From the NCBI RefSeq assembly GCF_039555335.1, contig NC_092647.1, forward strand, positions 18,628,946-18,692,945: a DNA stretch of 64,000 nt, read 5' to 3'. The notes beneath the pieces were generated by a model that saw nothing but the letters and a program-made list of their open reading frames with translations, searched no databases and was not told the DNA's origin. Below, in pieces: positions 1 to 55,842 of the stretch; the stretch's first letter is position 1; the number at the start of each line of letters is the position of its first letter. Made by a program: the position numbers and the translations under genes. This stretch comes from Amphiura filiformis (lineage: Eukaryota).

Positions 1-371
1 TAGGCCGTATAAAATTAATATTTTGGTTCTCGTCCAGAGGATTTTCATGAATTGATGAGGGAGGGAGGTGTTTTTTTTTCAGTGTAAAATCAGCATTGTC
101 TGCAGTTTTCGGTCTTTTCCAACAGTGCTCGAGGAAGCGATGACGCACTTTTTTTTTTCAAATGTGAGATTCTGAGGATAAACCCACTAGAGTAGGCCCT
201 ACCACAAAAAGACTTGGAAGTGGTCCTTGTTCTAGGGCCTATAGGCCTATGTATGAAAAATTCATAAATCATTCAAAAGTCTTAAAATAATTGAAAAATC
301 TATTTAAAAAAAAAAATCTGACAAATCCCAGAAAAGACACACTTATGGGACCAGGGTCAAAACAAAAGTCA

Positions 372-770
372 GGCTCGGGATAGCGTGTTGGCGCGGTTGT
401 TTCCTCGCCTTGCACCACTACTGAGGTCCCGGGTTCAACTTCAAGCCCCTGGCGCGCGGCCCAAAGACTCGTGTGAACTTGGTTGATCTCGATCCCGCAC
501 GCTTTCTTCGGGATCTCCAGTTTCCTCCTGCTTCTCAAAAATCGGTGATTAGTTGTTTGGTTATCAAAAACTTCCTTCACCCAATGAAATTTGGGGAGCT
601 GAAAAGATAATTGGTGGAAGTTACAATCCAAGCGCGGCTAGATTTGCGACAGGTTCGGCAGCATCCAGCCTAGATGATGCAATCTGATTGTGATAAGTAC
701 CATGGCAGCGAAATTACAGCGCTTTCGGCTTTGAACCCTCCGAGATCTGGGAAAAGGCGTTATTATATAA
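372..770 (+). mobile_element. tRNA-derived SINE, copy A. The tRNA-like head (…GTTCAA… T-loop motif) is followed by a ~300 bp body.
   Basis: Direct alignment by eye with 52885-53270 shows the same element at ~80% identity. The head has box A/B-like tRNA motifs (gcgcggt…, ccgggttcaa). Confidence 0.65.
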
Positions 771-2850
771 AAGCGAAATTTATTTTATTTATTTTAAAAG
801 CCTATGAAAATGAAAAACAAATTTGAAGATAAAGAACCACGAGAAGAACATATTAAGGCCACTCCAAACAATCATATGAACAATATTTACTGTCAGCCTT
901 TGGTTTGGGATATGGAAATGCTTATAGGCCTAATCCAATCTCAACTCAAACTGATAGGCCTACTTGAAAGTGCAAAGTGTCCGAGCGTTTTATCAAAGGT
1001 AGGCCTATAGTTACAAAGTTTATGTTGATTGGGTAAATCTTGTAAAATACAGTGCGCCTGGCTGAATATTTCGTTTTTAGAAATGACTGACATCAATTTA
1101 GCATAGCCTAGGCCTACCCGGTCCTAACCATCCATGGATGAAAATAAGTGTAAGCCTATAATATTTCCAATTTGATGTTTGTAGCATATAGGCTTTTTGA
1201 AGGCCAATGTATGTTTGTAGGCGCTCCTCGTAATTTATTTCAAGAACAGCTTGCATGTCATGTTCTTCTGAACCAACTTCTTCATCTGCCGTTCAGCTAC
1301 TGCCCCAGTGCCAACGGCTCAAATAATATTGGCAAGACTCCCGTATTACACATGGTAGGCCTATAGGGGAATACATTTGCAAAATAAAAGGGCCTATGCC
1401 TACTTTGCATTGGGGGTATGAAAATAAGCATTTTTGAAAGTTAACTTATGGAAGAAAAAGCTTTTTTATACCAATTGTCAGGTTTTGGAAAAAATAATCA
1501 TCTCTTGAATATTTTTAAGGTAGAAAAAAAAAAAAAAATACATAGGCCTATAATAATAATATCCATGGGAGGTGCTCGCGCCGGCACCTCATCTGCAATT
1601 TATGTGTTGCGACAAATCTTGGCGATATTCCCCTTAACATCGTCACTATATCATAGGCCTATAGGCATACTCATAATTAGTTTTATGGTTTTATATATGC
1701 CATGTAGGGCCTACATAAAGTCATCGGAATCATATATTGGTCATGTTGACCGGGGTAGGAAGCTGCATGCTTGATGATGATAAAAAAAAACCAATTGATC
1801 GTCCCCGCCCGCTTCCTTTCGCATGGTATTGCAATTGCGGAGTCTGAAATGTTTAATGCTATTTTCTTTATTATAAGGAAAACTTCTTTTTAAAATGTTT
1901 CAAAAGTTAATAATATTGTCAATAGTTTAGATTTGCTTCTGTCCATTAAGGATTTCAATTTAGAGGCTTTGTTTTAATCATCTTCTCAGAGAACCATCAA
2001 ATAACAAGAGCCTCGGTCCTATCATCCTCCTCTACAAATTACACAACTAGTAATAATATCCGGGAATAATACATAGGGCCTAGGCCTAAATGATCCATTT
2101 GCATTGTAAAAATAACTAATAAATATAAATAAAAGGCCCTCCACTTCCTCTTTTTGATAACATGTGGACAATCAACTGGAATTTTGTTTTTACTTGACCT
2201 TTAAATAATTATAAGTGGTTGTATTACCATGCTTATTGCATCTGATATTTAGATCGCGATCGCTGTTGTCAAATTATCCGGCAAAAATGTCAACGCATAA
2301 CACAAAAGCGCGTAACCACAATGACGTCATAAGGAAAGCGCCAATTTTCTACTTTGGATAAATGGCCCAGCGATGTAGCGTCGGAAGGGAATAAATCGAG
2401 TCGTTGTTTTCATTGTATTTTTATTTCTAAAATAGTTAGTTCTTCAATTGTTTTAAATATTGATTCTATATTTTATGGGCTTTATTTTGATACCAAATCA
2501 TATTTTCTTTCAATGGTCCCTTTAACACCTAAATGTAGATAATAATAAAAAATTTGCTAAACGCCTAAAATGTTTAAAAAGTGTTACAGCTAGGAATTTA
2601 CAGTGCATTGACTATTTTGTTTAACATTTGGGAGATATGATGCCCCAGAAAAGCACCCACAAAAGAAATGCATTGTGGGAAGAATGTCCTTGCTTGATGT
2701 TTTTCCCTACAGTTTTGGTCCTGGAAAAATAACATTTTTAACACTAGGGCGTAAACAGTCAGCGCAGCTTGAAATATACTTTCAGAAACTAATCTTTGTC
2801 ATTAATAACAATGTATTTGCCAGTTTGAATTTCATTCTTGCAGATTTAAA

Positions 2851-3112
2851 AGAGCATTCTGTGTTCCACAGCCTCATCCATCCAATTTTTTCAAAAAAAG
2901 TTGAGATTTTTATACCTCTGGAAACCTCTGGCTACATAATGTTTATGTACAAATAACATCGGCCTATGTATGGAGCAGAGTAATACACATAATCATGCAT
3001 GCATAACTCGCAAACGCAAAATCGAAATCAACTCAAATTTTGGGAATATGCTTTTGTTGTGGATATCTACTGAAAAATAAAAATAGGAGGATAGAATCAC
3101 AAAATCCGCCTT
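2851..3112 (+). repeat. Interspersed repeat R2, copy A (…ccacagcctcatcc…ggctacataatgtttatgtac…ctcgcaaacgcaaaatcg…)
   Basis: Collinear ~85% match to 53285-53635. In copy B an extra ~85 bp hairpin-containing segment is present. Confidence 0.6.
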
Positions 3113-3410
3113 TAACTTGGGTTATTTTTGGATACAATTTTATGTTTATGTGTAGCCCAGTTTTTCAAGCTTTCTAGTATAAACTTCTAAGGTCCTTTGG
3201 AAGTGAACTGAGTCATGGGTGGGGTGGGTAACATAACATGCAGCTGGACTATTACAGCTATGTAACCTAGTTATAATCAAGTGTTATTTCCTTTATTGAT
3301 CGTTATCAATATTACTTAATTAACACACTTAATCTCCATATACACCTGTATTTATGCCTTGTGAAGTTCACTTTTAAAAAACACTCACACTATAATTAAT
3401 ATATGTGATG

Positions 3411-3985
3411 CGATCAAGCAAAATCAGTCTGACATAGGCCCAGGTCAAATTTTGTGTGCTTTTTCATTTAAACATAATCAAAGCTCCACATTTAGTGAAA
3501 ACCCCATGTCAATGCGACCTATGGTTACAAAGTTACAACAATTTGAATGTTGGTGCATTAAAAAGAAGAAACAGAGAAAAATCAAGTTTAAAGTTGGAGT
3601 ACTTACTGTTTATAAAGTCATATTTACTTTACACCTAAAATACATGTAAATACATAGTCAACTCAGCTAGAATGCCTTTGGTTTAAGATATGGCTACGAA
3701 ATTTGGCATAACAAAATGCTAAATCTGAGCTTCATTTAGAATAATTTCAGGATTTATAACAATGATCAATGAAAGTTGAATGGGGGTCAAAAAGTAACTT
3801 TTTCAACATTTTCCCTTGAATAATTTCATCAAAAATATTTGTGTGTGAAAGAAGAATGTTTTTCACTTTCATTTTTGCAAAAAAAAGTCTATTTTGATTT
3901 TTCCCCTACACACATTATTTGGCCTATATCTCAAAACTAGGATTGCCGAGTTCTGACTGATTTTCCTCGATCGCATCACAAATAC
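3411..3985. mobile_element. Non-autonomous TIR element, long member of the atatgtgatgcgatcaagcaaaatcagtc family
   Basis: ~30 bp terminal inverted repeats at 3411-3440 and 3950-3985. The same termini bound a 275 bp element at 62423-62697 and a diverged one at 55557-55835. Confidence 0.55.
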
Positions 3986-4679
3986 GCGCATACGGTCTAT
4001 TTTGAAAATTGTCACATAAGAAATTGGACCCTATCATCCCTATGACATTTGGGCATACACAGTACATGTAGGCCTAGGCTATAGCATATTTTCACCCAAA
4101 AAGTGGATCTTTTGTTGAATTGCTTGATTTTAATTTTGATAAGGGTTTGTAGTGTTCTGATCACCCCCCCTTTGGTACAACTCCCCCACCCCCAGCTACA
4201 GGCCTGGCCCAGCAAACACAAAACTTGTAAGTTTTAGAGAAAACATTTTAACATCATTGGGTTTAATAAAAGGTGTAAATATAGTAAATAGTAGCATGAT
4301 GATGGGCTTGACGGATACTTCGAGTGTGTAATTACAGATATTCTATTTATAATCACACAATGCAAGGAAAGCAGTCTATTATTTATAACATTACAGACCC
4401 GTCCAGTAATTTGCCCATCTGGACGATCGTAAAAATCATCAAAAAGTTTCCAAGAAACAAGTCATCATAATTTCCCACCACACTTTAATATGATCAGAAA
4501 CCCAACACAAACATTGATCTATCCCGGCTTAGTAACCTAAGGGCGGAAATTAACTCAATGAACTCTGAAGAAAACTGAAATTCATCCTGCTTAAATTTAC
4601 CCCTCCCATTTACATGATGTACCAGAGTATACAAGCTGCATCAATACCAATAACAAAGCGAAGGAGAATACTCCTGCCT

Positions 4680-4909
4680 TAATGCTCTGCGTGCTAGCCA
4701 TAGGCTTCAACACAAAAAGTCCAAATTTTGAGATGTTTTCTCAAAATATCAAGAGCTACCTCGAGAACCTCTGAACCAATACAAGGCTTGTTTGTACTCA
4801 TTTTAATGCATTTTTCATGCTGATGCCAAATCTGGTCATGAAAATGTAGAATTCTAAAATTTTTGAATTTTTAAAGAAAATTTGAAACCCATCGTCTGCA
4901 GTCGACACC
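4680..4909 (+). repeat. Interspersed repeat R3 (taatgctctgc-tgctagccataggcttcaac … cgtctgcagtcgacacc), copy 1
   Basis: Near full-length copies at 4680-4909, 16620-16850 and 55237-55466. Partial copies at 8220-8310 (+) and 10565-10685 (−). Confidence 0.6.
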
Positions 4910-7060
4910 ATCGCGGTGAGGGTTAAGATAAATTGGTACCATGGCATTCAATTATTTTCAATAGAGATCAGTTTGTGTGGCATCTTGAGTATATCTCACA
5001 CCTTTGCTACACCCAAAGTTCAGGTAAAGTAAGTCAACTGGCTCATTATGGCCAATAGATGGGGCTAAACCACTTTTATGGACTCTGTATGTATTAAAGG
5101 CATCATCTTCTACACGGCCTACATGATAAAATCCTGTGTGTGGTTGGGAGGATGTTCACATGCCTTTGCTTTAATATACAAATAGAGTGTTTTTGACAGT
5201 CTATATTGGCAGGTATTCAATTTATTCTTCCCGTTTGCCCCTAAAACATGTGTTTTAGTGCATGAGATGGTATCACGGAATGATAACAAGTGAAAACACA
5301 TGATTTTTGACATGGGTAGTTTGAAAACTAAAGTTCTCTAGACCTTTTGTAAAATAGCCATTTTGTTGAGAAAAATTAATAAAACAGTATTTAAACCTTA
5401 AAGGGGGATCCAGTTGACCAGGCAAACTTTCAAGGACAACCCAATTAAGTAGGCTTAAAATACAATCAAGTCAATGTTCACCTCTATACCACCAAACTTT
5501 ATACAGCTCCCAACTTAATGTGTTTTCCAGATATTTATAGCGACCTTTAATCATTTTTCTACATTCTTTCTTCCAGACCCACTTCTCATCAACATAAATG
5601 TCACATTGTTGAAGTAAATGTGTGACTGATTCACACATAAAACAAAATAAATTTGGTAAAATATGAACTTGACACTTCCTGTCTGCAACTAACTGGCAAT
5701 AAAATCTGAATTTATGCACAAAACTGTTGAAAATTGAAACTGATCCTAGTCCATAAAATATGAAATATAACATCTTAGCTATACTTTGTTCTGCTTAATA
5801 TTATTTGCTTTTTGCTACTGGGTGCATCAATTATTCTCTTGTAAATTCAAAATAGCATGAGCTAGTCACCCAGGCATATCATTAATTTCGGTAGGTATAC
5901 TCCCCCCCCCCCCTTGAATTTTGAGATGCTGCAAGGTCTGTGGGAGCTGACGACGTACCAGTAAAAGGGGGTCTTTTGGAGTTAACAACAGTCAAAATCA
6001 GGAGTTGAAATTTGCCTGAAAAAAAAACCCAGAAATGTGAGGATTGAGCAATTTATAGGGGTCAAAGAGCTGAAATTATCAAAATCAAGGGCATTTTAGT
6101 GCTGTTTTGGTACAATTCAGGGCTCTTTCAGAGCTGTGTGGTCCAAAAATAGAGGCCTCTCATATCCCTGGTTTTGCAAAATATTTTGAAACCTTTCGCA
6201 TTACAAAATAATCCCAAGTCATAACAATGAAAACTATCATCCTTGTCACTCCATCAAACTAAATTAGACCATGATTAGACTTAATAATAAACATGGGAAT
6301 CTAACCCTGAACCTAAACCTTCAGTCCTGGTTCTGGTAAAGCTGTATTATTAAAAACACAATCTGAAATGGAGGTAAAATTTAAACCAAGCTTGAAATTT
6401 TGATAAACAAACAAGGTCTTGAGGGGAAATGTTCAAGGCCCAGTTTAAAAAAGGCTGACAGCCAAATTTGATCATTTAATGGTAGACATCAGTCATACCA
6501 CCAGAAACGTGATGAACCAAATTGTCTGGTTTTATGTGATAGATGGATGGCATTGTGATTGTCAGGTGGTAGCACTTCTTAAACTGTAAAGGTACATTGT
6601 GAAGTTCAATCTATAAAACATTATAATGATGACGTCCATGAACTCTAGAGACTTCCACCAAGTTTGGAAATGAGGCATTTAACTCTCCCTATCACTAGGA
6701 TTCCATGATGAGCAAATCATGAGGCAGTGGGCCGTTTTACCATGAAAACCACTTTAATCTAGGGTGCCCTTATTATTAAAGACTTTAGGCCTACTATTGA
6801 TCCCAGAGATTTATACTTCATTATTTCTTCTTCTTCTTCCTTATAAGTGCCTCCCTCATATGTATGAGTATTATCGCACTGAGTACAGACAAGCTGTACT
6901 TATTTTTTACTCTGGAACCTAGAGTAGATGAGTGTATTTTGAAGTACAGTCAACATGACCGGGATGATCCCCTGCTCTTTTCGAATAGCCGGTGACGTTC
7001 TTTAACGTGCACACTACATTAATGTGAGAAAATATGCATGTACAGGACCGACAGCTTAAA

Positions 7061-7192
7061 GTGCCCTCCGAAGCACTAAGCAAGTAGAGTGAAGTGTCTT
7101 GCTCAAGGACACAAAGAGCCTGACCTGGGATTCGAACCCTTGACCCTTGGGTTCACAGTCCTATGCCTTAACCGTTAGGCCACGCTCTCCTC
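7061..7192 (-). mobile_element. tRNA-derived SINE fragment. The reverse complement reads ggaggagagcgtggcctaacggttaaggcatag…gggttcgaatccc.
   Basis: tRNA-like D-arm and T-arm (GGTTCGAATCC) motifs on the minus strand, with a non-tRNA tail. No acceptor stem can be paired, so it is not a functional tRNA. Confidence 0.55.
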
Positions 7193-7532
7193 CTATGAAT
7201 GTACCCTGGTGGAATGAACTTGTAGTGTCGTGAATGTGTAGTAACTAGTATAGTGTAAAATCTATGCATGTAGGTTTCATGTTATTGTAGGCCTACATAG
7301 ATTGTGTAGGCCTATTATAGGCAAAGCTTTAAAATATCAGTTTGCCTTAAATCGAGGGCACTCTAGATAAAAGTTGACGTGATAAACAGCCGTACCCTAG
7401 GTATAGGGAAATACAAGTTGCAAGTGGGCCGTCAGTTAACCCTTCCTCCTCCAACAAGAATGGTAGGTTTCCGTTTCAAGTAGCCCTCAAAATGAACAAA
7501 TACCCTGAACCTGCGGTTTCTAAGGGTCGTGG

Positions 7533-7747
7533 GCAGTGGCGGCACCACGGGGGGGGGGGGGGGGATGGGGCATTTCCAACAGAACTCTTGCCTCCCTGTT
7601 GCCCCCAGAAAAAACCCAAAATTACGAAAATTTCCACTTTTTATGCGGTAATTTTATGCAAAATTTGTTGATTTTGCCCCCCTGAAATTCACTTCCCCAC
7701 CCCCTAATGCCCCCCCCCCCGAACAAAATTCCTGTCGCCACCACTGG
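7533..7747. mobile_element. G/C-homopolymer-rich MITE (family G) with termini cagtggcggcacc … ggtggcgacag
   Basis: Imperfect terminal inverted repeats. Internal G16 and C10-11 runs. Related copies at 17185-17364 (opposite orientation) and partial at 8568-8650. Confidence 0.5.
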
Positions 7748-8219
7748 TAGTGGGCCATTTGAAAAAAGATTGCGAACAAAACCCTTATGAAAGAAAATTA
7801 TGAAACTAGCATTATAAAAGTAAAGATACCCTTATTAACTTGCTATTTTTGTGAAACAATTATAAAATATCAGCCCCCCCTACTGAGATTGATTCTAAAT
7901 ATCATCCCTATTAATTTTTGACTATCAATATTCATTCATTTTACCTTTAAATGCACGATGACATGCACTGGAACAGAAAAACATCGATTGATGATGGTTT
8001 TTGTTTATTATGATTAATGTGGCTTCACCTTTCTTTCATAAGAGACCTACTTAATGTGGTGATGTTTTTCCATCATAGGCCTACAAAATGTGGTAACCAA
8101 TCTACATGTATACACTGGAAAAATAATTATTGGTTAATTTGATTACTTTTTCACAGAATTTAAACATTGTGTCTCCTGGCTGGATTTTAATAAAACCATT
8201 CTAAAACCTGCCCCTCTAG

Positions 8220-8310
8220 TTAAAGATCTGCGTACTAGCCATAGGCTTCAGCATAAAAAGTTTTGAGATATTTTCTCAAAATATCAAGAGCTATCTCAAG
8301 AATCATTGAA
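8220..8310 (+). repeat. R3 repeat, 5' partial copy
   Basis: Matches the first ~90 bp of the R3 copies (ctagccataggcttcagcataaaaag…ttttctcaaaatatcaagagctatctcaagaa). Confidence 0.5.
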
Positions 8311-10564
8311 AAAAATTCTGCCCGACCCCAACTTCCAATTCCCCCTCCCCCCAAGTCAAATTGTGCATCCCAAAACCGGGCCCTAAACAAGCAATTTTCT
8401 TATGCTAAATGTTCAAAGCAAACAGGTGATAAACAACTTGTCTGATGGTTAACCACTTTCACCACCAAATCGTTCAGTAACCTTTGGACTTGTCATATCG
8501 AATCATCTCTTTGGTCCGGTCCGGGCTCTTTGGCTGGCCATAAAATTGGTTTCCTCTATTTCCTCCAGCAATTTTATGCAAACATTGTTGATTTACCCCC
8601 CCCTTCATTTCCCCCCCGATAAAAATTGCTGGCACCGCCACTAGTAGCAGTACACACCGGGCAGGTCAACCCACGGCCCACTTTTTTGCACTTTTTGTAG
8701 CTTTGCTCACTTTGCTTATGGAGATTGTAACTTTGGGTACCCCATTTTTTGTCACCTTTGCTGTACACACAATGATTTTACCTACACAAAGAAGTAACTG
8801 CATAGTGGCTAAATGTATTTTGATGATCTTTTCAATATGTAAACATTTCTGGTAGAAAATATCTCTACACCTATAGATTTTACTTTTAACTCGACTCAAA
8901 GATTATTTCCTGAAGCACTCCGAAAACAGATAAAGACAGGAAAGAGTAAAGGATGACCAGATACTTGTTTCCTGCTCTCAAGTATTTATCACATTTCATA
9001 GCCTGGTATCAGCATGATCAGGAAACAAGGGGACACTTGAAGTTTGGATTGATGATTAATTTATACACAAAATGATCAAGACATGTAAAAGGCACATTGT
9101 CTTGCAATTAATGACTAAAGAATTAATTATATTAGTTTCCCCTCTCCTTGGCTTGTCAAAAAATGCAACCTACATACACAGATTGGAATATATATTATAA
9201 TTGTTGTACTCTGTGCATAAATTAAATGATATTTCGAGTCTTCTTTATTGACCAGGAAGAAGAAGTGTGGAGCCCAGTTTGACCAGGGATATGATATCCC
9301 TGGTTTGACTTATCTCAAGTTTAGCCTATTTCCTGGATCACACCTGGGATCACACAACATTATTACATAACAGATAAGGACAGGAAAGAGCAAGGGCAAG
9401 GATGCATGGCCAGATTCTTGTTTCCTCAGTCTTTATCAGATAAAGTGATGTCTCACTTTCCAATTTTCTGTACTGATTTGCTATGGGTAGATAGTGACAA
9501 AATGTACCTAAATGCACAGAGTACATCCAGATTTTGCAATGAACAAACAAACACAAAACCTGAAACTCATATTAAATAGAAGTGCCAGAGAAAACTTTAC
9601 ATTTCTAGATATTGCATTTGATATCATGATCCCAAACCCATAATTGAAAATCTGAAAACCACTAATGATGCTATCTTCAGAAGATAGCATAATCACCTGA
9701 AGACTCTCAAATGCTCCATCCTTGATTTGGTTATTTTTATTGAAAATAAATGCATATTTCGTTAAAATGTTCACACTTAACTGGTTGAATAATATCCAGT
9801 TAAAAATGTTGTTCTTGTTTATTCTTTTCATTACAATCATGTATTCTATTCAATTTCTGTAAAGCTCATAGATGTTTTCAAACATTTTGTAGGCACAAAT
9901 AAATAAATAAACACAAACCCTTTTCGACATTAATCGCAAAAGGTTAGAAAAGATTGCCATAAAACTTTTAAATGTAGGGTTATATAAAGGTATGAAGGGT
10001 ATAAAACTTTTCATAACATTTTTTGAAAACTTACTGCAAAATATGCTAATAATATAATGTTATTTAAAAGTGTTGACAAAATATTTGGCAAAACTGTTTG
10101 CAAAAAATGATTTATATAGGCCTATATGAACATTTTGCCAACATTTAAAAAATGTTGGTATGTATTTTTAAAATGTTTTCATGACGAGGCATTAAACCGA
10201 CATTCAATGTTATAAACAATTTTACCAAAACCCAAACCCAAAATCGTTTTAAAAACGTTTTGTGTTTGCTGGGGAAATGATGCAAATTGCATGCAAACAA
10301 CAGAATTGTACATTTTCATGACCATATTTGGAATCCCCATGTAATAAAAATTCCTTTAAAAAAGGAATGTGGCGCCCAATGTGAACTTGGACGTGATATG
10401 GTGAATTCCATGGTGTGTAGATTTGGTATTATAATGATTTTTCTAGGGAAGAGTAGAAGATGATCAAATGCAAGAGAAATGTGTTTGATTGGGGAAGGTG
10501 TATGACAGGACCGTTTTGGATGAAATAAATGGGAATGAAGCTTTCGTATGTAAAAAGCATTAAA

Positions 10565-10685
10565 ATGAGTACAAACAAGCCCAGTATTGGTTCAATGGTT
10601 CTTAAGATAGCTTTTGATATTTTGAGAAAATATCTCTCAACTTGGAACTTTTTATGTTGAAGCCTATGGCTAGCACACAGAGCAT
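10565..10685 (-). repeat. R3 repeat, partial copy on the minus strand
   Basis: The reverse complement matches the R3 5' half. Confidence 0.5.
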
Positions 10686-11107
10686 CATGTTCTATATTTT
10701 CTGTGAGGTCATTTTTGCACCAGGGTAGTTTTACCTGGCAATCTTTGTTTTAGAGAACCCACCTGTTTCATAAGAATATAATTAAGTTAATAAGAACATC
10801 TGATCACTAGAAAAGCTTTAAACAGTTATTATTATTATATTGTTGAACACAACTGTTTGAGACATAATTCTGCAATATTTAGATTCAGCTTAGTGACAAC
10901 ACCTGTCTGTGTTTGGCCAATAACTTTGTCAATTGATTTCTAAATTTCTCTGCATTTGCTTAATCTTGGGATGACCACAAATTGGATTTATTATAATATT
11001 ATTGGCTTGTTGTGATTTATTCAAATGACCTATATAATTGCTTTTATTGGATGGTCAAGTGTCATGTCCTTTTTTTCTATTTTTCCTTATTTTCATTTTA
11101 CTATGGT

Positions 11108-11160
11108 CAATCAACCAGCCAATCAACCAGCCAATCAACCAGCCAATCAACCAATCAATC
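11108..11160. repeat. 12-bp microsatellite (ccaatcaaccag)x~4.5
   Basis: Perfect tandem repeats visible directly in the sequence. Confidence 0.9.
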
Positions 11161-11383
11161 TATCAACTGAGCAATTTGCTGTAGAAATGATGAAACAGGG
11201 TTACCTACCAAGTACCATAGCAATAACAAATTTTATATAAATGCACTGCACAAGTACTGGTACCTTTGAATTGAACCAGTAGACTTTTCCCTTCATATTG
11301 ACTTTTTATGTGGAGTATGGGGATTCGCACCCCACATCCTCCTGGCTACGGCTCTGTGATCAGGTTAAATATGAACCTGTGTA

Positions 11384-11527
11384 TTAACCAAGTTTTTCTT
11401 TCAAACCATTTAATTTTCATGACGAAAATTGGAATCTCTATAATAAAATAAATCATTAACCAAGTTTTTCATTCAAACCATTTAATTTCCATGACCAAAA
11501 TTGGAATCTCTATAATAAAATAAATCA
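11384..11527. repeat. Tandem duplication of a ~71 bp unit (accaagtttttc-ttcaaaccatttaatttNcatgacNaaaattggaatctctataataaaataaatca)
   Basis: Two adjacent near-identical copies. Confidence 0.8.
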
Positions 11528-14500
11528 AAATGCATATAAATCTATTAAATGCTGGTTCATGTTTCTTTTTTTGCAATTGCTGCATTTTCTGAAAAGTTCA
11601 AATTTCATTAAAATTGCAAGGAAGCAAAATAGCTGCCTACAAAGGCTATTTTAAGCCTAACATCTCTAATTTAATATAGAGTACCGTACCTTGGAAATAA
11701 TTGATAAGACAAAATAAGATACCCTGGATCTCAGGGACCTTGTGTTTATGTCTGTGTTAATATGTGAACAGGAAAATTGTTATGTAATTGACTTTCCCTT
11801 GCTAGTTTATCTTGATAAAATGATATAACACCATAAATGATAGCCTTAATTGTCAAGTACATTACTTCACAGACTCCGGAGATATATAGATATATTTAAC
11901 TGATAATATGAGATATGAGTCACTGGAGTCCCCAACATATTTGAGTCATTCAAAAACAAGTGAATTATACCTTCTCATGATGCATTTCATTGGCTTAGGA
12001 AGATTTTCAACATGGGGGGGGGGGGGGGCTGAAACTTAAAAAATATTTTGATGGGGGTTTCCCCTCCCCCCTTGGAGTAAGAAAATGTTGCAAATTATAG
12101 GTCACAAACACCAATTTTCCCTCTATTTTATCACAATTTTTAACTTCATCTATTATTGAGGTGGGGCTTGAAAGGTATTCCAGTCCCGCACCAAAATTAT
12201 TGAGGGGGCTGAGCCCCCTCCCCCAGCCCCCCGGTTCCTAAGCCTATGCATTATTTCATTCGTAATATTGCCATTTTTCAGTCTTAATATTGCCATTGGC
12301 GTAAAACAATGAGGCGAAAAAAATAATGATATCGCCCATGTTATATGAGACGATAGATGCAATCCAGCAGCTAAAAAAATACTCTAAATATTGGACAAAT
12401 GAGGTATCAAAATGTGCGTAAATATCAAAATAATATTTAGGCCTATTCCTAAGTTTAAATTATTGTGAATATGATGAATATATAGTTCTGAAGCTATAGA
12501 CGTGTATATAATGACTGCGTTCCTTTTTGTGAAAGCTTTATTTTCATGCCTACACTGTCAAAATATATAGGCCTACTTGAGGTTTAACTTGCTGACTTTG
12601 CAAGGTTTGCAAAAAAGCCTGTTTCTGGCACTACTCCCAAGAAAAAATCAATGGCGCAAGCCTGACAATTACTCACTTTACTCCATTCATTTAGAAAACA
12701 ATACACAGAATAAAGATTTGTGGACCTATGTAAATTGTCAAAATTATGTTCTTGGGTATTTTTGGCTCTGTTCCGAAAACCGCAAACCATGTTAGATAAT
12801 ACAAATTTGCTACATATGAACCTGTATGTCTCCAGGCACAGTTAACAACATACAGGAACCCTGCGCATCTTGTCTCAGTTCAAAAGTTCAAAACTTCTCA
12901 GAGATAACAAATTTACCAAGTAAGCCTGGAGTAAAAAAATATATCACTGCATTTACTTGCATTTACACTTTTTTCAACCTGGTGGGAGAGTCTGCAATTG
13001 ATCTGATCTGATCTAGTCATACCAAAGGCGGCAAAAATAAGGAGTAAAATACAATAAAAACCAATCAAATGAACATAAAAAAATGTAGAACTTATGAAAT
13101 ATGCCAGAGATGTGTTGACTTCAACATCAATAATACACAAAAAGCTAATTTATTAGCAATGGTATTGCTAAATTGTCAAAATTTCCAACTTCGGTGGATA
13201 AGATCATGTCACAAATAGTAAGAAAAAAAAATCTCATTGGATGGTATATAATTCCTGGTGGAATGGTGGTGTAATTTGTAAAATCGGCTCATAGTTGGGA
13301 ATCCTGGGAGGCCATTTAACGTAATCAAAGGTTATGTGGAAAAAACACCTGTCTTATCTGTCTCGGCAGAGAAGATATTTTACCCTTCCCAGAATCCTTT
13401 GCAACATGATGCATCACCTCATTTCATCAAATCACACTCCTATTTTTTAATACAATAGCTTACTTTGTACAGGTTCCTTTTGTTTTCAGTGTGAGAATAA
13501 ACTGGTTAAACCTGGTTAAACATAGGTCAATCAAGAAATAAACATATTTTGCAAGATCTGGATGTCCTCTGTTTATTCATTGAGGTACCTAAACTACCTT
13601 TTGTCGACCCATGCTGAACTGGATTGCAAATCAGTACAGACAATGGAAACGGAAGCAATGCATTATGGGAAGTATAAGATATAGTATTGCCTCTGTACAC
13701 TGATCTACCAGGGCCTGCAAGAAGGTCATAAGCACTTTTAATATTATATGCACTTACACTTTTCTTGCATTCAGATCTATAATCTATATATTCATAAAAA
13801 CTAGAAATGTTCAGAAATTCCATAGAGGTAGGCACATGTTATCTAAAATACTGCCAAGCACATGCATGGTAAATTGCAGTGCAGTGTTTATGGGGTTGGG
13901 GGTTTTATTCTGGAAAAAGTGGTGCGCCAATTGCAAATGAAATGTTTTTTCCCCAATTTTGTCTTAAATTTTCTCAAATTGACTAATATTGCAAATTTGC
14001 AATACAGAATTGCAAATTCTTGTGCACAAATCTCATTTTAACTTGGCCAAAAATACATCAGCACAGGTGTGGGAGGGGTCATTTTAATAGTTCGGCCTAT
14101 ATGATATAAATGTCAATGACCTGTGATTTTACAGCCAGCACACCACTGCATCTCATCCAAATGTGGGTCTATTAAGACCCTGTACAAATTAAAAAATGTC
14201 TTCATTCGACGAAGATAAGTTAATCTTGATTAACTAATTAAGCATGCGTACACATTACGCTGAACGAAGATCGAACAAAGACATTGCACCATACACATTT
14301 CATGAAAATTAACGAAGCTATTAACGCCCGGCTATTATTAAAGTATTCCTTCGTTGTCAAAACAACCTTTTTAGCTTTGTTGAACGAAGCAATCTTCTTC
14401 AAAGGAAGAAAAGAATTGGCACTGATTTTGCCCTATTTTTGCCCACGATTGGAGTCAATAGCTGTGAATATTGGTGGGAAACGGATTCCTTGCCCCCTTT

Positions 14501-15002
14501 TTGTGAATATGTAACTTCTTTTTTAAAACAAAACTGTAGAAATTTTACAAATTGCATAGATTTGTGGATATTTTTTATCATTCTCTTCCTCAACATCCAG
14601 ACAGTCAAAATTAGGTCATATTGGTATGTCTGTCTGTGCAAGTAACTTGCTAAATTTCTCCCTGTGGAGCAAAAAAAAAATCTGAAAAAGTCAAACTTTT
14701 GCTCACCTCGTAAGTGAGTAAAGGTCACGTACATGTGGCATGGGAACACGCTGGCTTCTTACAAACTATTATTAGTTTAAAATTTCTACCCTAAAATGGA
14801 TATATAAAAATTATTTGAACTGTATAGACCTACATGTATGTGTGATTATGAAAGAGTGAGTGCATATGAAAGATAGCGCTTTTAGCAATACATGTCCCAA
14901 AGCTTGCGAAGATTTTAAAATCTATACCAAATGCGTTTTTTCCCACTCTTCCCCCAAACTCATTTTCATATTGGCCTAAACAAAATGAAATATTTTGACT
15001 AA

Positions 15003-15066
15003 GGGACCGTGCACAAACACTTGTTAGGGGGGCCTGATGCAACAACAAAAAACAGTCAACGGTCCC
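15003..15066. mobile_element. Micro-MITE, or a solo-TIR deletion derivative, of the PIF/Harbinger-like element that is found full-length at 23909-24151
   Basis: A 40-bp left terminus (gggaccgtgcacaaacacttgttagggggcctgatgcaa) and a 14-bp right terminus (…caacggtccc) are flanked by a perfect 3-bp TAA duplication at 15000-15002 and 15067-15069. Confidence 0.5.
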
Positions 15067-16619
15067 TAATATACAATTTTACTAGGAAGCACAATGATTC
15101 TACCAACAAAATGGTTTCACCAAACTTTTTTGGTTTCTGGTTATGGACAGGCCCAACAAAGATGCCACGCCCCAAGAAAGTCCCTCTGAAAGAAGTGGAC
15201 TTTTGAGGGTAAAACACGGTAAAAATGTTCAAATTAGAAAGAAAAAATTAAAGAAAGGGATCACTTTTGCCTATAATTCAAACCAGTAGTGTAGTATATG
15301 GGTCATCATATGGGGGCACCGGTCCACCGACCATGATTGGGGGCACTGGGCCTGCATGATGTGGGGGGCACAAGCTATTTTTTGACAATTTTTCCAATTA
15401 GATTTTCTATATTTTCAGATCAATTTAGGGAAGCACATACGTGCGCCCCGTGCCCCTATGACGCTACGCCACTGATTCAAAGTAAACCCAAATCGCTCTC
15501 TCCTGTTTCTTTCTATCCCGTCCTCAACTGCTTGCTTCCTTTCTTTTGCTTAATATAATCAGAACACAGACCCTCTCCTCTTTTTCTAGGGTCTGTGATC
15601 AGAACCATTAATACCATTAAACTTGTCACATCATAAATAATCATTATTAAAGTGCTATTTGGGAATTCACCATGAATTGATCTTCCTCCAGGCTAAACTC
15701 CCTGTAGGTTGTAAATCAACAGGTACCAACATGAGCCAGAATTAAATCTATTTTTGGACAAAAATAATTGGTATAATAAATAGGTACCTATACCTGTCTA
15801 TTTTTAATATGATTAAAAAGTTAATATATATTAACCTCTGGTATCAACAAACATAGACCATAGTCTATGCAACAAACAAGGTTTTGTTTGGGAATTTAAA
15901 AGGTCATATGAGGATGTACCTTGAACAAAATACCAGCAGAGGAAGCTAGATGACAAACATGAGAGGAGACATTTTTGCATATGCATGAGATGTACATGTG
16001 AACTGTACAATATAATATCCTGGGGAAATATCAAGGATTTCTGCATGTCCAGACAATTGTTCACTAATTAATGAGGTCAAAGTATGTTAAATTAAGCATA
16101 TAATAATCATTTAACATTCAGGAAGTTTGATATATTATTGAGATAAATAATACTCATAGACTGAAAAATAATTAACTTCTGATATCACTTACAAACATGG
16201 AGACTTATTGGCAAACGAGGAGATAAAAATAATACTTTCCCTTTTTTGCTTACTTTCAATGTAAATTCTGAACATGGGACTTAAAATTTATTTAGGCCTT
16301 TTATATACACCTAGCTACCTGTGGAAGTTTTATTGCCAAAGTTTGAATAAATATGGACTGATTCCAAATATAATTGCAAATTTCTCTTTTCCCTCATCTC
16401 ATTTACTGATTTAGCAATGTTCATATGGTCACAAGTTATTCCAGTACAATTTCTCAATTTCTGATGATTAATTTGGCACTTTTAAGATGCGCCATTTGTC
16501 TACACATTAATGCCGTCTATAATTGCACAGGTACATGATCCATGATAATATTCAAAGAAACAATTAATTTTACAATGATTAAATTACTACTTTATTAAAG
16601 AACATAATTTTGGATCTTT

Positions 16620-16850
16620 TAATGCTCTGCTTGCTAGTCATAGGCTTCAACAAAAATAAGTCCCAAGTTTTGAGATATCTTCTCAAAATATCAAGAGATA
16701 TCTGAAGAATTACCAAACCAATACTAGGCTTGTTTGTACTCATTTTAATGCATTTATGATGCTGATTCCAACTACGGTCATGAAAATTTACAATTTTAAA
16801 CTTTTTGAATTAAAAATAAAAATTGAAACTTGTGGTGTGCAGTTGACACC
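16620..16850 (+). repeat. R3 repeat copy 2
   Basis: ~85% identity to 4680-4909 over its whole length. Confidence 0.6.
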
Positions 16851-17184
16851 TGCATTTCCATGGTATTCCCTTCATCCCTCGCAAACAGATGTGGGGGTCA
16901 ATGACGTCAGAGCTAATGGTTCAGTTTGTAGCCTTTTTCAGTGGAGCATAAAATGCATGAAATGTGAAGCTATCCTTTTATTTTGTGTGTTTTTGCTGTG
17001 GGTGTCTTGGGAGACTGTAGTATATACCCCCATTGGAGAAGTTGAACCTACGCACCATTAAAGGCACATTCAGCAATTTCCTGTACCAGTTTTAAAAAAT
17101 TCACTGATCAAAATTCAGATTGTGCATTTTGGGAACATTCGAAGCATAGATGTGTTACTGAAATGGCCAACCAATTTGGTTAAC

Positions 17185-17364
17185 AGTGGTGGCACCAGGA
17201 TTTTTTTCCAGGTGGGGGGGGGCACAAAGTGAATTTCAGGGGGGGAATTTCTACAAATTTTGTAAAAGTGGAAATTTACGCCATTTGGGGAGGGTTTGCC
17301 TCAAAAGTGGCCGGGGGGGGCAAACTGGGAAAAAATATTGGGGGGCACAAAGCCGCCAGTGCTG
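17185..17364 (-). mobile_element. Family G G-run MITE copy
   Basis: Termini cagtggtggcacc / gccgccagtgctg. The internal segment is the reverse complement of 7620-7700. Confidence 0.5.
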
Positions 17365-20300
17365 ATTAAGACACGATCGGACATCAAAAAGAAGATACAG
17401 AAGAATTATTAGCATTTTTTTGTTCTTTTCACCCCGGGCTTGATCATCAAATTTGGTGCAAAGTATGTTTGGTGTAAACACCGAGCAAACAGGCACAGAG
17501 GATAGCAATTTACACTTGCAGAGGGTTATTTACACCTTATTAGACATGATATATTGTAATCAAATCAGCCTAAATTGCTATAAATCTGTTGGCGGTACAG
17601 TAATATAGACCCAACATTTTAGACAAATTATTTTGCACAGAAAATCTGTGAATGGGCCTTTAAACTTCCTTCCATGGGTTTTGGAGCAAGCCCTTGGTCA
17701 TGGTATAAAACCGAAACTTGAGCTGTTCCAAATCTGGTCTTTCTTCCCAGGGTTCTCTTGTCTGGTGGTATTGGTGGCCTGTCCAACCAGACCTTCACAT
17801 TTAGACTTGTTACAAGTCTTCATGGATGCCATTATTCGGATGGCCTGCTTCTATGAATGGCAGTATCTACACCCTGAGGCAAATCATGTCAACAACAGAA
17901 CTCAGTGGTGGAATTTGTAGTGTGTATTTGATTCCATCTGTTGCTGTTGTATTGTTTAGAGATGTGCAGAAAAAAAAAAACAATACAAAATTTGATGATG
18001 AAGAACGCCGACAAAAAAAATGGTTATAAAAAATGAATAATCTGTGCTTTTTCTAAAAATTTTACAACCATTTTTGTGAAAATGTTGGCCCAAATTTATA
18101 CCAAAAAGCCTGAAAATGCACCCCAAATCTGCTGCATGCAGGGGTCAATGTCATGGTTCTCTTTCTATTGCTCCTAGATACATGTAGGCCTATGTATTAA
18201 ATATACAATGTAGTGAACCAAACATTAGAATTCAATGAACTGTAAATTACAAGCTGCACATTTGCACTTCCCTGGACAAATGGATACAGTATGCTAGCAT
18301 ACCAGTTGCAAGTTGTCAGCGGGGTTGTCAGCCCAAGGAGATAAGAACAATTGGGATGACCTAGCTCGAAATACTCTAGCTAAAATACAGGTTGACATTT
18401 TACTATCTTACGTTATCTTGTATTTCAGCTAGAGCGCCATACTTAGAAAACCCAGGTTTTTCTGAGAACAATTAAAACACGTAATCTTTCATAACTTCAG
18501 TGATGCAACCTCGATGGCCATCATTATTATTCACAATTGAATTGAATGGATACGTGAGTTCCTCACAACAGAAATTAGCATCTCATCATGAATGAGCTGC
18601 CAATCTATAGAGTGTATGCAATAAACCCAAGTGGAACGAGAGTTGCTAAGTAACCGCTACCCGAACCATAAACACATGCATGATCAGACAACAAGTGTTC
18701 AATTTCCCCATAGCTTCCCACGTTGTACACATGTCAGTCGAATTTGGCGGTGTTGGTTTGTTTGTCCTCAAGTTATAGCATTGTTCACTTTGTGTTGAAC
18801 ATTGTCGTGGGCCTCACTGTAATAACTCAAAGATAACTGTGATCATCATTTCAAGAGGTCACTCTCCCGATTAAGCTAAACAACCTATGTGGAGGAATTT
18901 TATGCATGAGCAATCACATCAATGACGTAGTAATGAATACCAGGGCTACGACACTCAGCTCATTTGCATGGCAAAATTACCCGTCTCCTCCACAGCCAAT
19001 TTGGTTTCGCTCCATCGAAATCAAGCTGGTCACGGAGGAGACTATCCTCCTTTGTGTTTGTTCATTTGTGTATGGAGAGCCATTATTGGAGTCTATAATG
19101 ACTTAGGCTACGCTCTCAGCTAGAGTCCGCGCTGCACTGTACTAGAAATACCTTTTCTGTTAAATCGCTATAGAGCCAACCGGGGAACACGTATTCGTTT
19201 TGAAAATATAGCATTAAAATTAGTATCACCCTTGTGGCCCCGTGCAGTGGAAAACCTTAATTCTTTCATTAAAAAGAAATGAAAATAAAAAACAACACGG
19301 GTCTACCTGTGTACCTATAAAATGGGCACAGCAATTTGTCTCAAATATGAGTGAAATTTAAGAAACATACGGGATATGATGAACATTGACCTGGCGCCAT
19401 GATAGCAGGATCTATTAGTCGTTTTATATACAATGTATATACCGTATTGTCATAATACCAATATTTGTCATAATATATAATGAGTAATATTTAGCTAGCG
19501 TAAATGTGCAGTTCATATGCACAAGCGAATACTGATCTTTATGATATTCAGGTTCTTGTACATCGCATACATGTCACATAGGAGGTCATACGTGTTGACC
19601 TTCAGCTATTGTATTTGTTCATCTGTGTATGGAGAGAATTAACGCATCATTAAAACTCCATCAGTATTAGGGCGTAGTTCAGTGAACTCACCGGATTGCT
19701 ATTCCAAGTACTTTGATAATACAGATAATATATATAAATGGGTCGAGCGATTGCATTGAAAAACCTAATAAATTATTCATAACAGTTACGTAATCAATCG
19801 ATAGTGCGGACACTTTTCATTTGCAAACCACCAAAATTAAATGATCTTTTAGCGTTGGAAAAGAAACCACGTGAATAGAGTGCCCTCTCAAGAATAGGTT
19901 CTCTGTGTGAATACCCTCTATAGAATTCACTTTTAGACGGGATGAGCTTGTGTCTGGGATGACCTAGCATTGTAAATGATAATATACAGCTGGGAAATGG
20001 GCATATATTGGCTACAAAGTAAACCTATGCTAAAGGAATTTCAAAACAGTGAAAAAAACAAAGGCCTATTCTTTAACAAACTGGTTTCATGCCGGGGCTT
20101 CTTGTCAGTTGGTTTTGCAAATAAATTAGGCCTACATATCCAATAGAACTGTGTTCGGAGATGTCAACTGCATGCTGCAGTTAGAATTGGAATCTATTCT
20201 TTTTGTTAAATTTCTTAATTATATGAGAAAATGTTTGTTTACAACAAAGAAATCTAGACTACAATACAATAATGGCAGCAGGTAGTAGGCCTATTGGCTG

Positions 20301-23300: not shown

Positions 23301-23908
23301 CTCTGAGGCCCAACCCCTTAGTAAGAAACCATCATCTCTGAGGCCTCAACCCCTTCTCCATCAGTAAGGACCATTGCCACACTCTTTTAGGTTCAAACCC
23401 TTGCCCCCTCAGTAAGGACCCTTGTCACACTTGTTGAGCCCCAGCCACCCTGTCGCCCTTGGTTACGTAGCCGCTTTGAGGCGCCAGCCACTCAGTAAGG
23501 ACTCTTACTACAATCTTTGAGGCCTCAACCCTTTGCCCCCCTCAGTAAGAACCCTTGTCACCCTCTTTGAGGCTCATCCCCTGCCCCCTCAGTAAGCAGC
23601 CCAGCCCCCTCAGAAAGGACCATTGCCACCTTCTTTTGGGGCCCTAACCCCTTGCTACTCTCTTGAAGCCCTATCCCCCAACCCCCTCAGAAAAGACCAT
23701 TGCCACCTTGAGGCCTCAACCACCCTTCCTACCCTCTTTAGGGACTCTTGCCACATCCCCCAGTTAAGGACCATTACCACCCTCTTTGAGGCCCAAGCCC
23801 TTACTCCCTCAGTAAGGAACCTTGCCACCCTCTTTGAGGCCTCAACCTACAGCCCCCTCAGTAAGGACTGTAGCCACCCTATTTGAGGCCCCAGCCCCTG
23901 CCCCCTTA

Positions 23909-24151
23909 GGGACCATTCACAAACACTTGTAAAGGGGCCTGATGCAAAATGAAAATTCACATTTTTCAGCTCCCCCCCCCTTTGGCCATGAAAAATGAAC
24001 ATCAATCCCATAGAAAATAGTGTGAACTCATGTTCTCTGAGAAAAATTATGGTGATTTTTTAAAGACCCCCCCTTCAGAGGGACAAACATTTTCAGGGCC
24101 CCACCACTTTTTGCATTAGCCCCCCCCATTACAAGTGTTTGTGAACGGTCC
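23909..24151. mobile_element. PIF/Harbinger-like MITE of 243 bp, inserted into the satellite
   Basis: ~40 bp TIRs (gggaccattcacaaacacttgtaaaggggcctgatgcaaa … tttgcattagccccccccattacaagtgtttgtgaacggtcc). Flanking TTA duplication at 23906-23908 and 24152-24154. The satellite unit resumes in register across the insertion. Confidence 0.65.
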
Positions 24152-26535: not shown

Positions 26536-26619
26536 CTCCCTTCAGAGGAATAAAATTTTTCAGGGCCCGCCCCTTTTTGCATTAGCCCCCCTCCATTACA
26601 AGTGTTTGTGAATACTGCC
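26536..26619. mobile_element. 5'-truncated copy (3' 84 bp) of the same MITE, in the homologous position of the duplicated satellite block
   Basis: It matches 24068-24151 and is followed by the same satellite flank (ttagtgNggaaccttgccatc…). Confidence 0.55.
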
Positions 26620-29600: not shown

Positions 29601-29761
29601 CAGTCATTACAGCCGTTTATTATGTCCATCTTTATCAAGGGTACTCTAAATTTGATATTACGTAACATGTAGTCTATCTGCAATCTACCTTTTGAGGGGT
29701 GTTTATTTACTGGCAAAGATCTTGGACAGGGACCATAGGTGGTTTGAACGAGGCATCAAGG

Positions 29762-31446: not shown

Positions 31447-31796
31447 TTAAAATTGACATTGGGTATTTTTAAAATGGAAATTTGGCACAAAAAACGAGGA
31501 AAACAATAGTATTGACTAAGTTGAAGCCCCATTCAAATACATGGAGCTAATTTCTCCACATTTTTCATGTAAAATGACCTATTTTGTCTTTATTATACAG
31601 CTTTCACAGCTTTTACAGCTCAACCACTTGCAGGCTATGTTAGCACATCTATGCTTATAACAAAGGTGCAATTTTTATGATTTTCTGAATGAGTTAATCA
31701 CTGAATGGGCCTTTAAAAAATGCCAATTTTTGTTCTTTTCATTAACCAATAAATGCCAGAGGCACACTATTTGCCCTCTACGTGCGACAAACCAAA

Positions 31797-32432: not shown

Positions 32433-32521
32433 TTTAAACATTAGAAGCCATATCTGTATTTTCATGAACACAAGCTAATGTAAATGTCTAACCCTTGTAA
32501 ATGAAGCCCGAATACCTTTAA

Positions 32522-32853: not shown

Positions 32854-33149
32854 TTAAAAAATAGTTGGCATATCGGAAATCCGCTCAAAAGCAGTGCTGG
32901 TCACCAAAACAAAATTATTATGGTCAATAAAAAATATACACAACAAATCTTAAGATGAGACCACCTCAAACCAATGAGGTGTACATTTACTGTTATTTAA
33001 GAATATAGTAAACAAAGTATTTACAACTGTGTGAGTACAAAAGTAGGAAATAGTAACTAATATTTTAAAAATATGCATTATAGTGAATATATTAATGTAA
33101 GTGTATGTGCGCTTGTATTAGGAAAACTAGTGGAAACAGATATATGAGA

Positions 33150-39998: not shown

Positions 39999-40024
39999 GA
40001 ATATTAAGCAGTTAATATTTGTTT

Positions 40025-40624
40025 TATATACCGAATAATATAGATTCTTCTCATTTGATTGGTTAAAAGATTTCCTGACTGACAAGGCCTACAAGCTTTT
40101 AACTGCATAGGCCTAAGTAAGCTTAAATGCACACAGTGCATGCAAGAGCAAGGGTGCAGAATTTGGACCGATATCTACCGATTTCATATCTAAAACAACC
40201 CTACCGTTTCTGTGCTAACATCACACACTGCCGAGTCTCCAGGTCATAGTAATTTGTCTAAAAAGTGACATTTGGCAGGTCTAAATCCTTGACATGTAAC
40301 AGATTGTAAACAATCACTGCACTCACGGCGGCCAGGGAAAGATCGTCGTCAAGGAGAGGTCAAATTCCATTTCGAACTGTGATCGCGATAGTCTCTTTTA
40401 CAACACTGTAATCAACGCCGGCCGTATAGTGGAGTGCGCAATGTATCTGAGCGATCTGTGTATTCGGGTTGGGAATATCCAATTATTTAGCGGGCACAGT
40501 TGAATCTATGCCCGGGGCACAGTTGTTGCTTATGACGTCATCTTGATAGAAAAAGGGGGCACAGCTATTTTAATGATTCCACTTTTAACCAATCAGATGA
40601 GAGGAATCTATATGAGGTATATAA
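40025..40624. mobile_element. Non-autonomous element with ~45 bp TIRs (tatataccgaataatatagattcttctcatttgattggttaaaag / cttttaaccaatcagatgagaggaatctatatgaggtatata), adjacent to the palindrome
   Basis: Inverted termini. The interior contains gggcacagtt repeats and a TGACGTCA palindrome at ~40533. Confidence 0.5.
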
Positions 40625-53270: not shown

Positions 53271-53284
53271 TAAATTTATTTATA

Positions 53285-55835: not shown

Positions 55836-55842
55836 CAAATTG

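Follow-up and report, generated by a model that had tools for sequence, protein, structure and literature searches.

In Drosophila, the DNA replication-related element (DRE), TATCGATA, is bound by DREF, and clustered CGATA sites are bound by BEAF-32. In cyanobacteria, the highly iterated palindrome (HIP1), GCGATCGC, recurs about once per kb. Here we describe a comparable word in an animal: the palindromic octamer TAGGCCTA, which is crowded into the 5′ end of a 64,000-nucleotide stretch of the genome of Amphiura filiformis (contig NC_092647.1, positions 18,628,946 to 18,692,945; hereafter the window) and is also enriched in the DNA of related species. Going by behaviour, the fly DRE/DREF octamer with the BEAF-32 clusters and the cyanobacterial HIP1 would seem to be its closest described counterparts. 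The fly word, too, is a perfect palindrome of eight bases that begins and ends in TA and is strongly over-represented genome-wide, and the fly system joins a dimeric reader to single sites and tight clusters at promoters or boundaries, whereas for TAGGCCTA the reader is only postulated. The fly sequence is nevertheless a different one, found in another animal lineage, and the dispersed TAGGCCTA sites in our small sample show no association with CpG-rich DNA or promoters. HIP1 is likewise an exact octameric palindrome whose full form stands far above its sub-words and near variants, that lies in unique DNA and not on mobile elements, and that is common to related species; however, it is prokaryotic and about 20 times denser than TAGGCCTA, which occurs in its animal host about once per 19 kb, and it lacks the pronounced local cluster that TAGGCCTA forms.

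Two further systems share the form of the word. A sequence of the type TA-NN-N′N′-TA is the canonical footprint of Tc1/mariner transposons, as left by the excision of Tc1 and Sleeping Beauty, and for Tc1 it reads TA-CA-TG-TA. Such footprints resemble TAGGCCTA as TA-flanked palindromic 8-mers with variants one base longer or shorter and with pyrimidine-purine flanks, but TAGGCCTA departs from them in its extreme clustering, in having no GG...CC donor that we could find, and in that its shorter forms are not enriched. The same palindromic core is also contained in TTAGGCCTAA, the site to which the fungal dimeric regulator AflR of Aspergillus has been reported to bind (PMC8791188, PMC13609398). 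This transcription factor is of the Zn2Cys6 class, which is found in fungi only, and it serves one biosynthetic gene cluster; its site shows no genome-wide over-representation, and the system is unrelated to animals. In a literature search of incomplete coverage, no paper was found that treats TAGGCCTA or its 10-base forms as an animal genomic motif, the matches being primers and the AflR site.

The window reads as eukaryotic non-coding DNA from an animal with a methylated, repeat-rich genome, because it contains no open reading frame (ORF) longer than 170 amino acids in its 64 kb, it has a CpG observed/expected ratio of 0.39 and, outside arrays, a GC content of about 36-38%, and its repeats comprise two copies of a tRNA-derived short interspersed element (SINE), several families resembling miniature inverted-repeat transposable elements (MITEs) and about 10 kb of minisatellites. 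A search of the window against Rfam returned the tRNA-like head of the SINE and a weak hairpin, and nothing else. Within this DNA, TAGGCCTA occurs 22 times, while 100 dinucleotide-preserving shuffles of the window gave a mean of 0.69 occurrences (sd 0.76, maximum 3), and not one of the 100 reached 22. The octamer is also twice as frequent as its own constituent 7-mers predict (22 against 11.4), and once the k-mers of the minisatellites at 22-32 kb are set aside it is the most over-represented 8-mer of the window. Seen from its centre, 22 of the 110 GGCC tetramers outside tandem arrays carry TA on both sides, and the runner-up combination of flanks is found five times. The sequence-only reading from which this analysis started had arrived at the same total, with under one expected by chance and 17 of the sites in the first 12.6 kb, and these figures hold, as does the excess under the kind of shuffle it proposed. 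Its list of sites was right in number, but several coordinates were wrong by 1-9 bases (10117 had been given as 10126, for example, and 52417 as 52422), and of the nine sites it placed in 925-2090 eight lie there, the ninth being at 242. Its three variants were recovered as TAGGGCCTA at 233, 1705 and 2074, and one TAGGCCCTA was found besides, at 193. The excess of TAGGCCTA in the window is confirmed.

DNA from related genomes was gathered by scanning a metagenome collection with a 21-base pattern taken from the arm of the window's foldback MITE, an element of about 190 bases. In all, 120 contigs were returned, nearly all of them from the NCBI metagenome assembly JAAUXV01 (SAMN14350114, ‘CHAS20-1’); after two chance matches were dropped, the sample amounted to about 270 kb of host DNA of a related species, and the full data set came to 345 kb. 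The sample contigs have 36.6% GC and a CpG observed/expected ratio of 0.40, and what they have in common with the window is the foldback MITE, present in 116 contigs, and one further repeat family, but not the SINE. Since the SINE of the window (copies at 377-785 and 52885-53390; tail ...AAAGGCGTTATTATATAAAAGCGAAATTTATT) has no match in the 270 kb of related-host contigs, the sample may derive from another species than that of the window. Neither orthologous nor allelic counterparts of the window were retrieved.

In this sample TAGGCCTA occurs 15 times, where 1.2-2.2 occurrences are expected. Markov simulations of the sample averaged 1.67 occurrences at order 1 and 1.20 at order 3 and never exceeded 4, the excess is not matched by any Markov model up to order 5, and by over-representation TAGGCCTA ranks first among the 256 palindromic 8-mers. 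A more distant relative, which has no repeats in common with the window and is tied to the sample by a patatin-like lipase exon at 76% nucleotide identity, carries three exact copies and one variant in 10.8 kb. Because the word is in excess in the sample and frequent in the more distant relative as well, its enrichment is lineage-wide, at about 7-12 fold, with a background of about 0.055 per kb, or one site per 19 kb. Two other palindromic 8-mers are mildly over-represented in the pooled contigs L001-L120, namely TACATGTA (31 against 10-14) and CATGCATG (22 against 8-10); TACATGTA is the canonical Tc1-type footprint. The patatin-like phospholipase exon (PNPLA-type, ...DGGLT...ISPFSG...) is the sole recognisable coding sequence encountered in the analysis, and it is common to three host genomes, which come from different metagenome assemblies, with a nucleotide identity of about 75% (L060 1909-2307, which equals L122 61-420; L121 9943-10260; L123 3039-3352).

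Measured against this lineage background and not against chance composition, the window falls into two parts. Its first 20,300 bases hold 20 sites where a Poisson model expects 1.13 (P=1.5e-18), about 18-fold the background rate, whereas positions 20,301-64,000 hold two where 2.4 are expected (P=0.70). Narrower intervals at the 5′ end are more extreme still, with 10 sites against 0.24 in 1-4,300 (P=1e-13) and 8 against 0.067 in 900-2,100 (P=9e-15), the latter about 120-fold over background. From the 5′ end the density thins over about 20 kb, and because the window starts with the variant TAGGCCGTA at position 1, the cluster may extend upstream of it. Imperfect forms crowd together with the exact ones: 13 copies that are off by one substitution or one indel lie in the first 4.3 kb, where rates in the sample predict about 1.5. 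No helical phasing was found in the spacings of the 22 window sites, which were worked out by hand. The signal is thus real, statistically overwhelming, and both lineage-wide and locally clustered. The individual sites are listed in Table 1. A different word, GGGGGGGG, shows an enrichment in the first 21 kb that matches that of TAGGCCTA.

Table 1. Exact and variant TAGGCCTA sites and associated intervals, in window coordinates
Feature	Positions	Strand	Basis
Dense core, nine exact TAGGCCTA and near-copies	193..2088	.	Word counts and Poisson test against the lineage background
Whole enriched zone, 20 of 22 exact sites	1..20293	.	Counts and Poisson test against the background rate
Variant TAGGCCGTA at the opening of the window	1-9		
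Variant TAGGCCCTA, centre with one additional C	193..201	.	
Exact TAGGCCTA, variant TAGGGCCTA (233-241) immediately 5′	242..249	.	
Exact TAGGCCTA	925..932	.	
Exact TAGGCCTA	955..962	.	
Exact TAGGCCTA	1000..1007	.	
Exact TAGGCCTA, partial copy TAGCC (1104-1108) just before; GCCTAGGC at the junction	1109..1116	.	
Exact TAGGCCTA, followed by partial copy TAGGGG	1356..1363	.	
Exact TAGGCCTA	1543..1550	.	
Exact TAGGCCTA, one-substitution copy TAGGCATA (1662-1669) immediately 3′	1654..1661	.	
Variant TAGGGCCTA, centre with one additional G	1705..1713	.	
Exact TAGGCCTA, overlapping variant TAGGGCCTA (2074-2082)	2081..2088	.	
Exact TAGGCCTA, followed by partial copy GGCTA	4069..4076	.	
Exact TAGGCCTA	6786..6793	.	
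Pair of exact TAGGCCTA (7288-7295 and 7307-7314), spacing 19 bases	7288..7314	.	
Exact TAGGCCTA	8076..8083	.	
Exact TAGGCCTA	10117..10124	.	
Two exact TAGGCCTA (12438-12445 and 12568-12575)	12438..12575	.	
Exact TAGGCCTA	18185..18192	.	
Two exact TAGGCCTA (20127-20134 and 20286-20293)	20127..20293	.	
Exact TAGGCCTA in the repeat-rich half, where density equals the lineage background	40108..40115	.	
Exact TAGGCCTA at background density	52417..52424	.	
Segment of raised CpG observed/expected ratio, overlapping and abutting the 3′ edge of the dense core	1501..2400	.	

What is enriched is the complete palindrome, as expected of a symmetric reader. In the sample, after the full sites have been taken out, the sub-words TAGGC, TAGGCC and AGGCCT are left at or close to expectation, and the 24 one-substitution variants together number 51 where 43-59 are expected. 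When the two halves are moved apart as TAGG-N(0-12)-CCTA, enrichment is confined to a spacing of 0; a spacing of 1 shows a weak excess in which the additional base is nearly always G or C (4 of 4 such length variants in the window, 3 of 5 in the sample). Shortened forms are no more frequent than they should be, with 107 TAGGTA and TACCTA against 110-123 expected, and TAGGCTA with TAGCCTA reaches only about 1.7 times expectation. The sequences around the 22 sites are unrelated to one another, and in the symmetrised profile the sole flanking preference is for a purine at -1 and a pyrimidine at +1 (seen in 35 of 44 window half-sites and 27 of 36 sample half-sites), the information beyond these positions being at most 0.1 bit in the window and 0.18 bit in the sample. 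Complementarity between the two sides of a site is seen in 6 of 22 cases, against a frequency of 0.34 from the marginals, so the sides show no excess of pairing, and the purine/pyrimidine pattern would fit two independently contacted half-sites better than a mutational origin driven by hairpins. Finally, not one of the 37 exact sites, 22 from the window and 15 from the sample, lies in repeat-similar DNA, although such DNA makes up 21% of the bases in the 345 kb; the earlier remark that the motif sits outside the annotated repeat families therefore stands, both for the repeats of the window and for those it shares with the sample.

The dense core has a further peculiarity, in that an imperfect second copy is attached to 5 of the 10 sites of the first 4.1 kb. 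Some of these doubles have a period of 6, as in TAGCC-TAGGCC-TA at 1104, TAGGGCC-TAGGCC-TA at 2074 and TAGGCC-TAGGC-TA at 4069, and others a period of 8, as in TAGGGCCTA-TAGGCCTA at 233 and TAGGCCTA-TAGGCATA at 1654; within the core, double copies occupy 233-249, 1104-1116, 1356-1369, 1654-1669 and 2074-2088. Each period-6 double creates the word GCCTAGGC, which is the second dyad of a (TAGGCC)n array, and three of these are present in the core against about none expected. Several 15-base composites recur inside the cluster, and comparable doubles are found in related genomes (contigs L008 and L035, and L121 at 8450 and 9580). The doubles could reflect selection for paired sites or else record local duplication.

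Among the explanations that we have considered, the one we tentatively favour, at somewhat less than an even chance, is that TAGGCCTA, or its extended form R-TAGGCCTA-Y, is a putative lineage-specific site of a dimeric DNA-binding protein, present in the window as a homotypic cluster. A protein-binding site was one of three explanations offered in the sequence-only reading, and it appears to be the best to have survived. A precedent for the recognition of this palindrome by a protein is the dimeric AflR described above. A symmetric dimeric reader is suggested because the complete palindrome alone is enriched and would be read symmetrically, and we infer both that a protein reads TAGGCCTA and that the cluster is functional. 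In such a model, a sequence-specific protein would bind R-TAGGCCTA-Y as a symmetric dimer, at single sites dispersed through the non-repeat DNA of the lineage and at the homotypic cluster at the 5′ end of the window, whose 10 exact and 13 near copies, all within 4.3 kb, would act as a regulatory or architectural element, for instance in the role of enhancer, promoter-proximal element or boundary element. The mixture of exact and near copies in the core is reminiscent of the birth-and-decay pattern typical of homotypic binding-site clusters. The cluster adjoins the one non-repeat CpG-rich segment of the region: over 1501-2400, which abuts the core and is the sole non-repeat stretch of the region where the CpG observed/expected ratio is raised, that ratio runs from 0.68 to 1.31 in 300-base windows, against 0.39 window-wide, and peaks at 1.31 in 2101-2400. 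Between about 2265 and 2350 this segment carries CGCGATCGC, TGACGTCA and CCAAT-like words; words resembling the cAMP response element are among those it contains, and it may be linked to the TAGGCCTA cluster. The interval 2250-2400 is promoter-like in look, and no exon was found downstream of it.

Several observations weigh against such a role. Concatenated-ORF protein searches, exact-ORF look-ups and an amino-acid composition score revealed no gene or exon in the 64-kb window, and the dispersed sites of the sample show no association with CpG-rich DNA (P=0.53). Ordinary binding-site clusters are usually degenerate, whereas the predominance of the exact form in this one is unusual, and the doubles of the dense core point to local duplication at least as much as to selection. 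No allelic contigs were recovered within the sample, and at the PNPLA-like locus of three related species the exons align while the introns and other non-coding DNA do not. In a more far-reaching reading, which we regard as unlikely, TAGGCCTA might be the genome-wide recognition word of an architectural or chromatin-organising factor not described before in this invertebrate lineage, or alternatively the target of a sequence-specific nuclease or a transposase-derived protein. An architectural factor would have a role analogous to that of BEAF-32/DREF or CTCF, with arrays such as that at 0.2-2.1 kb serving as boundary, pairing or origin-type elements, and for a nuclease or transposase-derived protein staggered cuts and fill-in repair might yield the attached double copies.

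Such double copies are equally at home in an account without any reader, in which TAGGCCTA is a mutational by-product, the minimal unit of a self-complementary hexamer or octamer repeat, (TAGGCC)n or (TAGGCCTA)n, that duplicates locally without function as replication slippage, or fill-in after a staggered break, multiplies seeded sites in their neighbourhood. The second copies attached to half of the sites at the 5′ end, the doubles of related genomes, the GCCTAGGC dyads of the core and the recurring 15-base composites are all what this would produce, but most sites are single and lie tens to thousands of unrelated bases apart, which slippage cannot give. Tandem Repeats Finder reported no head-to-tail array of the unit, nothing in the 345 kb exceeds about 2.3 imperfect units, and duplication leaves unexplained both the roughly 10-fold lineage enrichment of singletons and their absence from repeats. 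We therefore consider this account improbable as a whole, with about one chance in a handful, even though local micro-duplication may contribute to the core. A microsatellite as the general explanation was rejected on the same absence of arrays and the unrelated sequence between single sites, and a cryptic tandem-repeat origin of the core was rejected as well, the segments between its sites matching one another over motif-sized stretches only. The sites might instead be the excision footprints of a TA-inserting cut-and-paste transposon with 5′-GG(G)...(C)CC-3′ ends that hopped repeatedly within the region. This has the attraction that TA-GG-CC-TA is of the TA-NN-N′N′-TA form, with TA on both sides of a short palindrome, that length variants with almost exclusively an extra G or C are expected if two or three terminal bases are kept, that the Y-R...Y-R flank bias resembles the TA-target preferences of the Tc1/mariner superfamily, and that density falls with distance from a focus. 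What speaks against it is the donor, for which no family was found: matches to TA-GG...CC-TA inverted repeats in the 345 kb are all internal to longer foldbacks, the abundant foldback MITE was rejected because it ends in AWTGGGC... and not in TA-GG, and the Family A repeat was rejected because its TAGGCTTCA is internal to that repeat. The shorter forms TAGGTA and TACCTA, as given above, stay at expectation, the sites lie wholly outside repeat DNA, and eight fixed events of insertion plus excision in 1.2 kb are implausible under drift, all of which makes footprints a decidedly unlikely source.

The remaining explanations fare worse. The sequence-only reading had also proposed the terminus or target site of an unrecognised tiny element, and this was rejected: the flanks are unrelated, no site lies in a recognisable repeat, and there are no pairs of terminal inverted repeats. 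When all TAGG...CCTA pairs within 6 kb were scanned, only internal parts of larger foldbacks came out, and no target-duplication pairs. Its third proposal, a compositional quirk of the species, is right to the extent that the word is about 7-12 times over-represented in some 270 kb of related DNA and frequent in a distant relative, but the motif is not equally frequent genome-wide, as the 20 sites against 1.1 in the first 20.3 kb and the 8 against 0.07 in 900-2100 make plain. A quirk by itself, with the 5′ concentration arising only as this half of the window is old unique DNA and the rest young repeats, would accord with the lineage-wide enrichment, with the absence of sites from repeats, with a first 21 kb that is far poorer in repeats than 33-64 kb, and with the higher density, 0.28 per kb, of the gene-proximal contig L121. 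Even against that density, however, it is extreme to find 8 sites within 1.2 kb and 10 within 4.3 kb, repeats can dilute density by 2-5 fold and not by 100, near-copies are co-enriched in the core only, and the genome-wide excess goes beyond every Markov model up to order 5; a pure quirk is set aside as very improbable because the local excess is about 100-fold over the lineage's own rate. Least credible of all is an artefact of assembly or sequencing, such as a linker or adapter remnant. Nothing specific speaks for it, although the StuI site (AGGCCT) inside the word could suggest a cloning linker, and we discount it almost entirely because the same excess recurs in three independently produced assemblies (the window, JAAUXV01 and ENA ERZ25070167), with the sites embedded in unrelated unique sequence and not at contig ends.

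The rest of the window has features of its own. Its foldback MITE, with arms ...AWTGGGCTATTCCAGTTGAAATCCATACACCCCCTATGGAAGA... and copies about 72% alike, is present in at least 10 copies in the 3′ half, at 36770-37000, 37150-37446, 40840-41070, 43420-43640 and 43819-44089 and again at 55734-56030, 57800-58030, 60467-60651, 61920-62140 and 63403-63695; tandem arrays of the arm alone occur in some sample contigs (L030, L033), and a scan of viral contigs gave no match to the element. Near-perfect long foldback palindromes are found at 39857-40022 (166 bases) and 32517-32858 (340 bases) and at 1-240 of contig L056 (about 240 bases), and the genome seems unusually rich in hairpin-type elements. 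A smaller hairpin at 18364-18441 scores 34 bits against mir-2319 and 29 bits against mir-187, on both strands and far under the gathering thresholds, and is probably no more than a small palindrome. In composition, the outlier is a C-rich minisatellite of about 7 kb at 22259-29462 (GC 53%, GC skew -0.37), built on a 48-base unit, CCCCTGTCCCCTCAGTAAGGACCCTTGCCACCCTCTTTGAGGCCCCAG, with higher-order periods of 88-282 bases. Immediately after it come two tandem arrays, at 29761-31447 and 31797-32430, one with a unit of 127/65 bases in about 13 copies at 92% identity, the other with a unit of 65-67 bases in about 9 copies. An interstitial telomere-like run, (CTAACC)x6 or CCCTAA-type, lies at 35540-35577 within 35372-35687, with 16-base tandem repeats on either side. 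Homopolymers of G or C, 9-16 bases long, occur at 5902, 7549, 7710, 12014 and 17214, and most of them belong to a G-rich family (...GGTGGCACCA...GGGGGGGGCACAAAGTGAATTTCAGGGGGG...) at 7.4-8.7, 12.0-12.3 and 17.16-17.37 kb. Searches of the literature with the consensus strings of the repeats gave no match.

Exact short palindromes that are strongly over-represented throughout an animal lineage, and not by way of repeats, are to our knowledge very few. The comparable words that are known outside this lineage, the DRE of flies and the HIP1 of cyanobacteria, each led to a specific reader protein or DNA-handling process. The present case offers a sharply defined word of 8-10 bases common to at least three related species, together with a naturally occurring array of exact and near-exact copies, about 23 in all, which could be used as a pull-down probe or as a reporter or insulator fragment. 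Should footprinting or staggered-break duplication prove to be the source after all, a rare mutational process would be legible as a genome-wide k-mer signal. TAGGCCTA is a good lead either for a binding-protein hunt or for the study of a mutational process.

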